Part shown: positions 8,498 to 23,342 of the stretch, piece after piece | How the letters are laid out: every line of letters begins with the position of its first letter | Numbering within the stretch: position 1 is the stretch's first letter | From: Eledone cirrhosa | Lineage: Eukaryota | Length of the DNA: 31,955 nt | Assembly: GCA_964016885.1 (NCBI GenBank) | Contig: CAXHJY010001465.1 | Span: forward strand, 1-31,955 | Direction: 5' to 3' | Notes under the pieces: generated by a model | What the model saw: the letters and a program-made list of their open reading frames with translations, nothing else | What the model was told of the DNA's origin: nothing | The model's database searches: none | Translations under genes and position numbers: made by a program

Positions 8498-8566
8498 TAT
8501 TTTATTATGCGCATTTCAAAAACAAATATCATCATGCGATGACATGCGTTTTCATCAGATAAAATA
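8498..8566 (-). ncRNA. Type I hammerhead ribozyme HHR1
   Basis: Minus strand: TATTTTAT (stem I 5') CTGATGA aaacgc-ATGTCATC-gcat-GATGATAT-ttgttttt (stem II) GAAA TGCGCA (palindromic stem III) TA| ATAAAATA (stem I 3'). Confidence 0.8.
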
Positions 8567-9139
8567 GGGAGACATGATATGAAGATTAAAAAACACTTGT
8601 GGATAGTACAGTTTTAAATCAACATATGAAAAGTAGTTTTAGATTGATGTGCGATATTGGGAAAAAAATGAGGGGGGGGGTGAAAAAGAGGAGGAGATGA
8701 GAGTAAAGAATGGAGGGGGAGGAGTATAATAAGGGAGGAGAGATGGGTGATAGAGAGAGAGAGATAGCTTATATATATATATATATATATATATATATAT
8801 ATATATATATATATATATATATATATAAACGTTTGTAAATGTATAATAAAGCCAAAACAATGCAGGTATGGACATACAATAAAGAATGCAAATGCAAAAG
8901 ATATTGTTGACTTTTACCTTAGATTTATTTAAATGTCCTTAATTTTCGAGATAATAATAATATATATGTATATATATATATATACACATACACATATATA
9001 TATATATATGTTTGTTTATGTGTATATATATATATATATATATATATATATATATATATATATATATATATATATATATATATATGTTTGTTTATGTATA
9101 TATATATATATGTCTAGGATGGTAATGTTCGTTGTGTCC

Positions 9140-9212
9140 TTCGTGAGGTTGTGATTTCGTTTCTCGGACTGGGCGATGCCTTTTGTCCCTGAGCAAGACA
9201 CGTTGCTCCTTC
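9140..9212 (+). mobile_element. CORE-type SINE fragment
   Basis: gaggttgtgatttcgtttctcggactggg...tgtccctgagcaagacac. Confidence 0.6.
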
Positions 9213-9394
9213 TACCTGGATCTGCGGCTGACAGATAGGATTAGCAATTAGACCAACGGAAAGGTTGTTTCGTCGAGCTCCACCTCACCACACTCGTTAA
9301 GTGAGGTCTAGGGTCGTGTCGATCGACTCACGATGGTGTCTGCTTATATTAGTGAATGAAGTTAGGTTATGGGCATATATATGGTGGTTGTCGT

Positions 9395-9545
9395 AGTGTG
9401 TGGTGTGTGGTATGGTGTGGTGTGTGGTGTTGTGTGAGATATGGTGTGGTGTGGTGTTGTGTGAGATATGGTGTGGTGTGTGGTGTTGTGTGTGATATGG
9501 TGTGATATGGTGTGGTGTTGTGTGCGATATGGTGTGGTGTTTGGT
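9395..9545. repeat. (TGGTG)-based minisatellite
   Basis: tgtggtgttgtgtgagatatgg units. Confidence 0.9.
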
Positions 9546-9829
9546 GAATGTAGTAAAAAGTCAGTTCACCCGCCTCCCTCCACAACCACCCCCACCCAAT
9601 ACATAATTACACCACCATGCCGCCTTCCTTATTAGCCTATTACGGATTGTTTGACGAGAAATATAACCCCCTAAGTTTGTGAAAGGGCCGTGTTGTTATC
9701 GGGTGGTATTGGTGGGGGATGAAGGTTCATTATGATTCCCACTTCAAGGTTTAGCAAATATTCTCGGCAAACTCTTTAATATTGACACACACTTCGGGCC
9801 CCTTTTTTGTTGCTTCGTCATACACCAAT

Positions 9830-10020
9830 GTCACCACTCTCTCCACTGTCCCCACTACCACTACCATCGCTGTCCCCCCACACACCACACTACCACTGCC
9901 ATCGCTGTCCCCACCACCACTACCATCGCCGTCGCTGCTCCCACCACCACTACCATCGCCGTCGCTGCCCCACCACCATCGCCGTCCCCACTACCATCGC
10001 CGTCCCCACCACCACTACAT
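9830..10020. repeat. CAC/CGC/CGT trinucleotide-derived minisatellite
   Basis: ccactaccatcgccgtc units. Confidence 0.88.
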
Positions 10021-10057
10021 TATTGTCTCCTCATAGTCTTCTTTCCTTCACTGTTAA

Positions 10058-10250
10058 GGGCGGTGGATTGGCAGTATCGGTAGAGTGTCAGACACCATGC
10101 TTTGCAGCATAGAGTTACGGCCCTTTATGGTCTGGGTTCAAATCCCGCCGAGGTTAACTTTGCCTTTCATCCTTACGGGGTGGATAAAATAAAGTACCAG
10201 TAATACACTGGGTTATTGCTGGCCTTGTGCCTAAAGTAGAAACAACTATT
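10058..10250 (+). mobile_element. SINE family 1, young full-length copy
   Basis: gggcggtggattggcagtatcggtagag head, ggttcaaatccc B-box, gcctttcatccttacggggt.gataaaataaagtaccag central domain (Meta/MESC-like by recall), ggccttgtgcctaaagtagaaacaa tail. Confidence 0.92.
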
Positions 10251-10264
10251 TACTCCGTCTCTTC

Positions 10265-20321: not shown

Positions 20322-20473
20322 AGCATAGAGTTACGTCCCTTTATGATCTGAGTTCAAATCCCACAGAGGTTAACTTTGCCTTTCATCCTTACGAGGTCGA
20401 TAAAATAAAGCACCAGTAATGTACTGGGGTAATTGCTGGCCTTGTGCCAAAAGTAGAAACAATTGTTATTATT
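20322..20473 (+). mobile_element. SINE family 1, 5'-truncated
   Basis: agcatagagttacgtccc...gagttcaaatccc...ccaaaagtagaaacaattgttattatt. Confidence 0.9.
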
Positions 20474-20485
20474 ACCGCTAAGGTC

Positions 20486-20592
20486 AGGGTGGTGGATTAA
20501 AAGTAGCGTTTGAGGCGTCGGACATATTGTAACCTCCCTTTACGCACTGAGTTCAATACAGCCGAGGTCAACTTTAACTTTCATCCTTTGGA
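20486..20592 (+). mobile_element. SINE family 1, older 5' half
   Basis: gggtggtggatt...gagttcaatacagccgaggtcaactttaactttcatcc. Confidence 0.75.
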
Positions 20593-21169
20593 TGGTTGTG
20601 TTCTGCAAAGTTTCAAATGTTCCGAGACACACCGCGTGTTAGGACGGCGCATTTACAACTCTATCAGGGATTAAAAGCCCTTTACTTACCGATGGTGAGG
20701 TTCCCCTAGTTTGCGCAATATATATATTGTCCAATGTGCCCTTTTGTAAATTTTAAGCAAATACTGATGCTTGGAAAATACTGAAATATGAAATGAAACT
20801 ACAAAAAAAAAAAAAAAAAATAGGTGAAATAACTTGAAAATATTTAATAAGTTTCAAACATTTGTTTAAAAAGACTGTTTTTTAATGTGACCACCACTCG
20901 TGATTAGTGTTGGAGTTGTGCCATGAAATCTCTGTTCATGGTTAGTTTTGGAACTATGTGACGTGATCTTCACTTTTGGTTCCAGTTGGAACGGTGCCAC
21001 GACCTATGATCTCGTAGAAATTATATGAAAGCGAACGACGAGAAAGGCTGTTTAGTTTTTAAGTTAGTGGCTAGGTGAGTTGATGAATAAGTCGTATTTG
21101 TAATATCCATTCTGTAATAGGAGGAAACTAAAATGAAAATGGCTCTTAGGAAAAATATAAGCTTTTGAA

Positions 21170-21255
21170 AAAGTTCTGGGGGTCGATGAGGTCAACTAAA
21201 TTCCTTTACGGTGGTAGTAGCGGCCCATGAGGGCTGAATTTTGATGACTGAGAGA
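21170..21255 (+). mobile_element. Degenerate SINE tail fragment of a related subfamily
   Basis: ctgggggtcgatgaggtcaactaaa...tgactga. Confidence 0.4.
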
Positions 21256-21320
21256 GAGTATATATACACACACACTCGTTTATGTTCACCATTGGATAAA
21301 ACACGTCGTTCCGTTTAGTT

Positions 21321-21430
21321 AATAATTGTTTCTGCTTTTGGCACAAGGCCAGCAATTATATCAGTGTATTACTGGTACTTTATTTTATCGAGACCGTAAG
21401 GATGAAAGGCAAAGTTAACCTCGGCGGGAA
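21321..21430 (-). mobile_element. SINE family 1, 5'-truncated
   Basis: aataattgtttct...ggcacaaggccagcaat...ggatgaaaggcaaagttaacctcggcggga. Confidence 0.9.
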
Positions 21431-21854
21431 TATGTAGTAACCGAAAAAGAACACACACATTTTATATATATATATATACAATATATTAACAAATGGAAAC
21501 TATATTTATAAAACCATATTTATTTTATTATACATATTTCAAGGGCCACCAAAGGCAAATTATGGTGCGCTTTCATCAGATAAAATACAATACAGATTTG
21601 TTTTATAAATAATTTGCCTTTGGTGGCCCTTGAAATATGTATAATAAAATAAATATGGTTTTATAAATATAGTTTCCATTTGTTAATATATTGTATATTT
21701 ACTCTATACATTGTTGAGTGCTTTATGTCAGTTATAAAATTTGTATGTCAGTTATAAAATTGAATCCCAACAAATTAAATATAACCTCTGCATATATATA
21801 TATATATATATATATATATAAAAAGTGTGTGTTCTTTTTCGGTTACTACATATT
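21429..21854. repeat. Long inverted repeat around HHR2 (Penelope-like pLTR arrangement)
   Basis: Perfect 90-bp arms 21474-21563 and 21609-21698 with a 45-nt spacer; outer arms 21429-21473 and ~21810-21854; ~100-bp extra segment in the right arm. Confidence 0.92.
21521..21587 (-). ncRNA. Type I hammerhead ribozyme HHR2
   Basis: Minus strand: TATTTTAT CTGATGA AAG-c-GCACCA-taatttgcctt-TGGTG(g)C-c-CTT GAAA TATGTA TA| ATAAAATA. Confidence 0.8.
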
Positions 21855-23139
21855 AGTTAGTTTGTGTGCACCTAAAAGTTGTCTAATGCGATACAAATCA
21901 TAATGAGGATGTTAAGAATAATAACTTGGCTTTACTGTATTACCGAAAGAATAAGTTTCGTTTCTTCGTTTTTGTAGATAACCCTTCTTTTTTATATTTA
22001 CTATACACCCCCCTCTTCAACATTTGTTTTTATGTTTAAATCTATACTTACATTTGTTATGTAATTTTTATCTTTAGCAATTTTAAACCGAAACGAAATC
22101 ATTATAAAAGCTTAGCAAATGAGAAAAGTAATGATTTTAAGTGCAAACATACTTAATGCTTCATGGGTATATGTAAAAACAATATCGTTAAAAAAAAAGA
22201 AGCCCGTGTGTTTAGGGTGTCAAAAACACAGCATTTAGTTTATTTTGAAGTGTAAAGTATTAGAAATGAAGTGGTGTTAATTAAAATAACAACAACACTT
22301 TGTTTGTCTTGCGGACCAGGGTCTAAAAATGTACACTAAATTAAAACTTATTCGCTTCGTTTCAGTGACCCTGGGCGCCAATTTATTTTTTGTACGTTTT
22401 CTATTACCGTTCATAGCATTTTTAATTAATCCGCATTTTTTTTTCGTATCTTTTTCAATTTTATTACACACACACTTTCCGAACTTCCGTGCCATTTCAA
22501 TAAATATTACCAATACTCTGTTGACATAAATAATTCTTGTTTTGTATCCTTTTAGTCTGATACGTTTATTTTCTTCTTATATTATTACTTTTTTAAAAAT
22601 ACAATTGTATTTTTATCCATACTTCCACTTTTTAAATGGACATAGAAACGGTGTTGGTAGTGCTGGTTGGGAATATAAATGTCTGTATTTACTTGTGTGT
22701 CTTTTTGTTTACGATACATTTAAGCGTTCGTGTTGTCTCATAAAGGGAGACAACTGCTATTGGCTATATAGCATTTAATACATACATGCTTATATGCTTG
22801 GTGATACTAACTTACGGATTGCGTGTGTGCGTGTATTAGTCTCCTACTTGTTTGTATTTTTTTCGTTTTTGTGGTTATAAACCATGGCTACATAGACGTG
22901 GTCGTTTTATTCATAGTCGCATACTTACTCAACTTCGTGTTTACTCTGGACAAAAATGAATTAACTTCTCGCACCATTGTGTGCTTTGTGACCGCTTCAA
23001 ACAATTCGAATAGTATCTGTTCTACTGCGGCTGCAACTTGGCTATATATATAACCAAAGATTAATATGGTTCATTGATTACTCAATTAATATAGTTTTAG
23101 AATAGATTAAAAGCACTCTACAAGGAAGTTTTCTGGAGT

Positions 23140-23342
23140 TATTAATATTATTCAGAATATTAATAAATGAAGACGTTCACATAATCAAAATATGTTTTAT
23201 TATATATATTTCGGAGGTACTGTGGTGTTTTTTCAGTATGTCCTCATCAGATAAAATATATGAATTGATGTGACACATCTCAACGGTCTTGATGGTTCAA
23301 TTCCAGTATTGGCATATATTAATATTTTGAATAATATTAATA
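23140..23342. repeat. 26-bp inverted repeat pair bracketing HHR3
   Basis: 23140-23165 vs 23317-23342, one mismatch. Confidence 0.75.
23190..23261 (-). ncRNA. Type I hammerhead ribozyme HHR3
   Basis: Minus strand: ATATATTTTAT CTGATGA GGA-ca-TACTG-aaaaaacacca-CAGTA-cc-TCC GAAA TATATA TA| ATAAAACATAT. Confidence 0.82.

Follow-up and report, generated by a model that had tools for sequence, protein, structure and literature searches.

Three hammerhead ribozyme motifs on the minus strand of a 31,955-nt stretch of the Eledone cirrhosa genome (contig CAXHJY010001465.1 of assembly GCA_964016885.1; the whole stretch is called the window here) appear to lie in short, likely dead copies of Penelope-like elements (PLEs) of the Hydra clade. 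Cleavage is predicted for dimers only, and the motifs are probably abundant because the reverse transcriptase (RT) of the element would begin copying just downstream of the hammerhead. We assign this reading as a whole a probability of about 0.88. The ribozyme class and hammerhead-bearing elements of the Hydra clade are already known, and the hammerheads here are a variant of them, one that Rfam misses; since the class is known, the motifs alone are unsurprising. What is possibly new is the placing of the copy ends, which fall at two fixed positions past the cut, each immediately 5' of a hairpin that occurs twice. The formation of Penelope tails and inverted ends and the role of the hammerhead are stated as open questions in section 15 of PMC8557442 and in the available text of PMC11167929. 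The families described here are a large natural data set with intact open reading frames (ORFs), and they make specific predictions on Penelope priming: two starts, twin hairpins, asymmetric pairs, a probable RNA 5' end and no cleavage footprint.

Read on the minus strand, the motifs have the form TATTTTAT-CTGATGA-[34/32/31 nt]-GAAA-[TGCGCA/TATGTA/TATATA]-TA-ATAAAAYA and span 8566-8498 (A), 21587-21521 (B) and 23258-23193 (C). An initial annotation of the window had reported these motifs; we located them again in the sequence, and its predicted cuts hold as it placed them. The copies and their parts are as follows.

8453..8775, minus strand: short copy of family A, a putative Hydra-clade Penelope-like element, with the hammerhead, ~217 nt of sequence before its core and a near-site end in (TA)n
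8498..8566, minus strand: hammerhead A, with stem I at 8566-8559/8505-8498, CUGAUGA at 8558-8552 and GAAA at 8517-8514
8551-8518, minus strand: stem II of hammerhead A, 2 nt shorter than the commonest family form
8514-8507, minus strand: palindrome AUGCGCAU of hammerhead A; predicted cut 8506/8505
21471..21612, minus strand: family B, arm 1 of a head-to-head pair, with a full hammerhead and a near-site end in (TA)n
21521..21587, minus strand: hammerhead B, with a stem II of 32 nt (31 nt in the commonest family form); predicted cut 21529/21528
within 21521..21587, minus strand: palindrome AUAUGUAU of hammerhead B, which would form tandem U·G in a dimer
21609..21791, plus strand: family B, arm 2, a partial copy with GAAA at 21632-21635, the tail, hairpin 1 and a far-site end in (TA)n
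21701..21722, plus strand: tail hairpin 1 of arm 2 (ACUC...GAGU-GCU), read from the sequence
23043..23315, minus strand: short copy of family C', with hammerhead, tail and far-site end
23193..23258, minus strand: hammerhead C, with a stem II of 31 nt and palindrome AUAUAUAU; predicted cut 23201/23200
23111..23139, minus strand: tail hairpin 1 of copy C (ACUC...GAGU-GCU), a family motif

The core elements CUGANGA, GAAA and N-U-H occur in this order in all three window copies and in all of the families, with A as N17. Stems I and II are base-paired and stem I is the open end, which is the type I topology that had been proposed. Stem I has eight pairs in hammerheads A and B, and seven plus an A·C mismatch in C. 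The folding energies of stem II are -10.5, -8.2 and -5.6 kcal/mol for A, B and C, with z scores against shuffles of -3.1, -0.9 and -2.4, so B taken alone is not significant. Each window copy departs from the commonest form of its family (A has lost 2 nt, B has gained 1 nt, and stem II pair 5 of C is A·C, against G-C in most copies of its family), which is consistent with decay after insertion. The family A copy is 80-87% identical to the repeat flanking intact ORFs at loci L039, L031, L036 and L042. The three intact copies are more than the 0.38 expected per 32 kb (Poisson estimate, P ~0.007), but the (TA)n content of the window is very high and these copies were the reason for choosing it. 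The plus-strand copy at 21609-21791, which the initial annotation did not list, lies head-to-head with copy B and lacks CUGAUGA because it begins inside loop II. Outside the (TA)n on both sides of this pair, ~35 nt of flank are duplicated in inverted orientation (21429-21463/21820-21854); such a duplication was rejected as a general rule, with 0 clear cases in 38 other pairs (L163 has 13 nt in common).

The motifs belong to a genome-wide repeat. A common pattern made of the stem I ends, CUGAUGA, 10-40 nt, GAAA, 6 nt and UA has 35,268 matches in the 3.0-Gb genome, and its reversed form has none, so the motif is not a product of chance. Another 9,604 matches (control 0) come from a sister pattern whose stem I has two G·U swaps, for a combined count of at least 44,872, or one copy per roughly 70 kb. 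The 35,268 matches divide into 17,699 forward and 17,569 reverse. In a genome-wide repeat with balanced strands, the co-orientation in the window is a matter of chance, and it is not the feature that the initial annotation took it to be; the partial fourth copy also lies on the plus strand, and the supposed single co-oriented family unit consists of independent insertions of three families. Further hammerhead families have a different stem I and the same TATATA stem III (L143:7181-7232 and other unassigned copies), so the genome total lies above these counts. At L152 (G000:C1:63697747-63697899), the 5' part of a C hammerhead is present as three 65-nt tandem repeats.

The stems II of the window had seemed unrelated and fully replaced. 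Aligned by their pairing, they are homologous versions of one common architecture, and intermediates between them exist. Among 221 distinct copies of typical length (223 were parsed), between 213 and 216 form each of pairs 1-3, 215 carry a C·C or C·U mismatch at position 4, and between 199 and 217 form each of pairs 5-7; the counts are not independent events, as the copies come from four or five lineages and were partly chosen by family patterns. The length of stem II varies from 24 to 37 nt. Compensatory swaps between A-U and G-C at pairs 1, 2, 3 and 5, and between C-G and U-A at pair 6, bear out the earlier view that structure was kept through sequence change. Stem similarity tracks the similarity of the ORF proteins. 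The B and D stems are alike, and protein pieces of D and B are 58-84% identical, against 40-60% for A with B or C; one protein piece in L142, at 35-37%, is located away from the B pair. G·U swaps occur in stem I of family D. At stem III, 211 of the 223 copies have an 8-nt self-complementary sequence, of which there are three main forms, in agreement with the short palindromic stem III from which dimer cleavage had been predicted. Closing it within one molecule is unfavorable, even one further pair costing ~3.5-4 kcal/mol. Because the palindrome is kept and has no favorable closure within one molecule, these hammerheads are predicted to cut only as dimers.

Each stem II type belongs to its own family within a set of related, probably Hydra-clade, PLEs. 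The full element runs in the order hammerhead, near site, hairpin 1, far site, hairpin 2, ATG, RT-endonuclease ORF, 3' untranslated region and second hammerhead. In L036 and L039, same-strand family A hammerheads 3.7-3.9 kb apart flank an open ORF, of 775 and 808 aa respectively; L031 has an open ORF of 821 aa. ORFs of 743-746 aa adjoin D hammerheads in L134 and L138-L140. The RT/GIY-YIG-type ORFs of the families are ~740-800 aa long. Those of A and D are intact; the copies of B (L040) and C (L145) with tandem hammerheads have a broken ORF between them, and fragments of an ORF adjoin C' hammerheads in L148. The proposed Penelope-like origin is upheld by these ORFs between tandem hammerheads. 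Family D was found by a protein search with an ORF piece adjoining a C hammerhead; that piece was rejected as the ORF of C, being a D insertion. Terminal-repeat hammerheads, tandem and inverted copies and a tail at one end are all seen in the families. The insertion target is (TA)n, the ends of 196 of 223 copies lying in TA runs at one or other of two positions. Family A has a (CA)n(TA)n run directly after the stop codon (L039:2960-3040) and ~59-nt tandem repeats in the 3' untranslated region (L039:2420-2560). Its internal TA run may serve as its own target, favoring tandem copies.

The proteins P0001 (family A) and P0003 (family D) are 53% identical. P0001 to P0003 are each encoded by a single ORF with a YRDD RT followed by a C-terminal (I/V)Y..Y(F/V)G pair. 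P0001 and P0003 carry RxRW, SDKTNN, YRDD, CxCX5C, a GIY-YIG-like pair, CxxC and CxH; the RWK-type motif reads RLRWI/RIRWR, with the K lost, and DKT replaces DKG. CxCX5C and CxxC are present in all four families, and CxH is seen in A and D. Read by eye in the ORF proteins, the endonuclease showed no obvious internal CCHH motif. The motifs of P0001 and P0003 agree with the Hydra-clade features listed in section 11 of PMC8557442. The Atlas links P0001 to HTH_animal, GIY-YIG and RVT_1 clusters. Among the 120 matches listed for P0003, DK(T/S) is present in 117 and CxCX5C in 104. Identity is 39-48% for the best of them, and a single one, from Argonauta hians at 39%, carries a species name. The label cephalopod in the initial annotation fits this match and is not established by it.

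In all four families, the 3' ends fall at a near site ~+40-55 or a far site ~+130-150 past the predicted cut and pass into (TA)n. The 223 copies comprise 124 near ends, 72 far ends, 11 that run on into the ORF and 16 that are otherwise placed or too short, the class being assigned by tail motif in agreement with alignment-based ends. Of 50 head-to-head pairs, 7 could not be classified. The other 43 comprise 39 near+far, 3 near+near and 1 far+far, and this near+far share gives a binomial p of 1.6e-8 against 0.5. In the run-on copies, the hairpin RCUC...GAGY-RCU occurs twice, at +52-60 and +142-159 (both found in 10/11), so placed that each hairpin is within ~12 nt 3' of one end site. The single hairpins are weak, at -0.6 to -6 kcal/mol. 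Loose (TA)n ends at both sites also appear in contigs of four runs from one study, which are possibly not assembly-independent and do not bear on RNA ends. Judged from these positions, the two fixed end sites are likely start points of the element's own RT.

At the other side of the hammerhead, 58 of 120 copies start 55-90 nt before the core and only 2 start at 91-109 nt. The boundary falls at or just after a YCA, as read by eye, and the C' copy in the window, which starts ~64 nt upstream of its core, lies inside the preferred zone of its family. This zone is likely the RNA 5' end. Initiator and TATA spacing and the numbering of hammerhead positions are taken from general background. Additional boundary clusters near 184 nt (B) and 290-320 nt (A) were rejected as real because they likely mark divergence of the reference.

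If cut RNA were the usual template, copies might be expected to pile up at the predicted cut. In family A, a base other than A precedes the post-cut sequence in 138 of 7,865 cases, and 8 of 30 inspected by eye are true truncations; at a control site six bases on, the corresponding figures are 59 of 5,399 and 13 of 30. Scaled in this way, truncation amounts to 37/7,865 at the cut and 26/5,399 at the control, ~0.47% each, a comparison confined to family A in which junctions preceded by A are invisible at both sites. A pile-up at the cut was therefore rejected, ends there being no commoner than at the control, and the RNA templates were likely uncut or re-ligated. Seven of the 30 inspected sequences (L196, L198, L207, L209, L210, L213 and L218) have a 3-nt slippage loss across the predicted cut.

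A consistent course of events can be proposed. The endonuclease would nick (TA)n on both strands, and two RT subunits, positioned by the twin hairpins, would prime at the near and far sites. Such two-site priming would yield head-to-head pairs with one tailed and one untailed arm. The cDNA would cross the uncut or re-ligated hammerhead, often halting 55-90 nt upstream of the core at what is likely the RNA 5' end, and cDNA from a downstream repeat would continue through the ORF. Tandem hammerheads of one read-through RNA could pair via their 8-nt palindromes and cut slowly or with the help of protein; cutting would then be a processing or regulatory step that is dispensable for insertion. A more specific version is tentative, and we lean somewhat against it. 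In that version, the duplicated hairpin (RCUC...GAGY-RCU) would be the priming signal, with each subunit of an RT-endonuclease dimer held 3' of its own start, two staggered primings would occur, and the uncut hammerhead would be a passenger in the 5' leader, carried to more than 44,000 sites.

Several observations weigh against the reading of these motifs as dimer-cutting hammerheads in Hydra-clade copies. The comparison with Rfam hammerhead models, which the initial annotation had put forward as a check, gave no match around any copy at E<=10, and a whole-window Rfam search had no hammerhead among the 150 of 210 matches listed. The lowest-energy fold of each window copy differs from the hammerhead fold. 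A, B and D have A-U as pair 10.1-11.1, which is kept as G-C by the published PLE hammerheads in the available text of PMC4209133. Most loci were chosen by core-containing or family-specific patterns and the copies are not independent, so core conservation is partly built in; among loci chosen by downstream sequence alone, both core halves are kept in 27 of 30. The placement in the Hydra clade was made from motifs and element features; a Pfam search with P0001 and P0002 and a Protein Data Bank sequence search with P0001 gave no match. The hammerhead-to-hammerhead unit is 3.7-4.5 kb, and Hydra elements are 'generally <3 kb', which is a tendency and not diagnostic. As to the RNA 5' end, a TATAAAT 30-31 nt before the boundary was read by eye only in the C and C' references, and the 5' cluster of family A falls on a CATATG palindrome, where microhomology could explain it. 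Perfect head-to-head palindromes centered on the cut occur 6 times among 100 matches listed, a weak hint that some cut RNA was copied; one comparable palindromic junction (L241) is at the control site.

These points bear most directly on an alternative in which the motif no longer cuts and is kept as a folded site for binding of the element protein or for RNA dimerization. The A-U at 10.1-11.1, the non-hammerhead folds of lowest energy and the uncut look of the templates would all suit it. We nonetheless consider it unlikely, as every family keeps all catalytic positions and N-U-H, even D, whose discovery came through its protein, and a lizard PLE hammerhead cuts with protein help (in the available text of PMC11167929). 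The opposite alternative is fast cleavage as a monomer, with the long stem II docking through its C·Y mismatch on an extended stem I to offset the tiny stem III, and the unit RNA being released or circularized. The mismatch is kept in 215/221 copies across families ~50% diverged in protein, and the folds of B, C and D extend stem I past 8 bp with bulges; mismatch and bulged extension are candidates for a stem I-stem II tertiary contact. Yet the energetic cost of stem III stands against this, the palindrome is kept through three different sequences in a way explicable only by a dimer, PLE hammerheads tested so far were inactive as monomers (in the available text of PMC4209133), and cDNA ends at the cut are not in excess. 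This makes cleavage as a monomer slightly harder still to credit.

In a third alternative, the short copies form a family of their own, non-autonomous and retrozyme- or SINE-like, in which small, perhaps circular RNAs are excised by the hammerhead and copied by a borrowed Penelope RT. Loci picked by motif are mostly free of ORFs (68/102 without a tblastn match), the short copies have a preferred 5' boundary in common, and animal retrozymes carry type I hammerheads (PMC7229834, available text). However, head-to-tail arrays of 150-450 bp are not seen; same-strand, same-family pairs are instead 3.7-4.5 kb apart around an ORF, and the short copies resemble the repeats of elements that carry ORFs, with which they have both end sites in common, and do not stop at the cut. 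This alternative is accordingly quite improbable. Chance matches in AT-rich DNA are already refuted: a loose core pattern does match four other places in the window, rejected as hammerheads for lack of a stem I, but the absence of control matches, the covariation and the link to ORFs leave virtually no room for it.

Like the Hydra clade of Craig et al. 2021 (PMC8557442), the elements here have a single ORF with a C-terminal GIY-YIG-type endonuclease, RW, DKT, CxCX5C, CxxC and CxH, a (TA)n target and a terminal-repeat hammerhead; an inverted 5'-truncated partner and a one-end tail, also seen here, are described there for PLEs generally. Hydra-1_Obim of Octopus bimaculoides has a hammerhead of different sequence, and the hammerheads here are unlike it and all other Hydra hammerheads listed in that paper, which in File S2 have uninterrupted stems II of 3-7 bp and odd or short stem III loops. 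The stem I-core sequence of the window is absent from the supplement text. The unit is longer here (3.7-4.5 kb vs 2.5 kb), as is the tail (~85-100 nt vs 30-40). Hydra-1_Obim is noted as lacking a pLTR and as having four copies that end at one site, in contrast to the motif count here.

Cervera & de la Pena 2014 (PMC4209133) described PLE hammerheads with a larger-than-usual helix II and high within-genome variability, along with opposite-strand pairs 100-700 bp apart; dimer cleavage is covered there and in PMC6765202. The minimal PLE hammerheads (PMC4209133; Lunse et al.) have in common with ours the type I topology, the enlarged helix II and the palindromic short stem III, and those of PMC4209133 likewise form many sequence families per genome, mostly as solo copies, with some in opposite-strand pairs. 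The hammerheads here differ in having no unpaired base between 9 and 10.1, often A-U at 10.1-11.1, a stem II of 24-37 nt that the conserved C·Y mismatch interrupts, an 8-nt palindrome, a stem I of at least 8 bp and copy counts above the 2,000-9,000 of PMC4209133. The retroelement family had been called possibly undescribed. Its class is described (PMC4209133, PMC8557442); for these hammerheads, the C·Y mismatch and the twin hairpins, no prior description was found in the literature, with Repbase, Dfam, closed journals, figures and one supplement of PMC4209133 outside the search.

The closest mechanistic parallel is the lizard element Poseidon PAc of Anolis (Frangieh et al. 2024, PMC11167929). 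In vitro, two internal RT starts delimit its tail and uncut RNA is the main template, and its protein introduces nicks into both strands of AT-rich DNA, helps the hammerhead of the element to cut and is predicted to form dimers. The near and far ends and the likely uncut templates here match those results. The PAc starts are 111-118 nt inside the ORF, in one AC-rich stem-loop; here, on genomic evidence, both putative starts are in the 5' untranslated region, ~90 nt apart and each before its own hairpin copy. Animal non-LTR retrozymes (PMC7229834) resemble these elements in type I hammerhead, high copy number and low GC; unlike them, the motif here is in ORF-bearing elements and short tandem arrays are not seen.

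The window has a few other features. A tandem array of ~37 copies of a 43-bp unit occupies 24312-25988. A separate repeat at 21322-21450 and 24075-24190, common to ~20 of the loci compared, is probably a SINE. On the minus strand at 16839-17060, the end of a long (TA)n frame has a VIIGALG motif and resembles what we take to be the C-terminus of an R4/Dong-type restriction-like endonuclease. Short frames at 14067-14354 and 30198-30584 presumably resemble the C-terminal end of RTE-type LINE ORFs.

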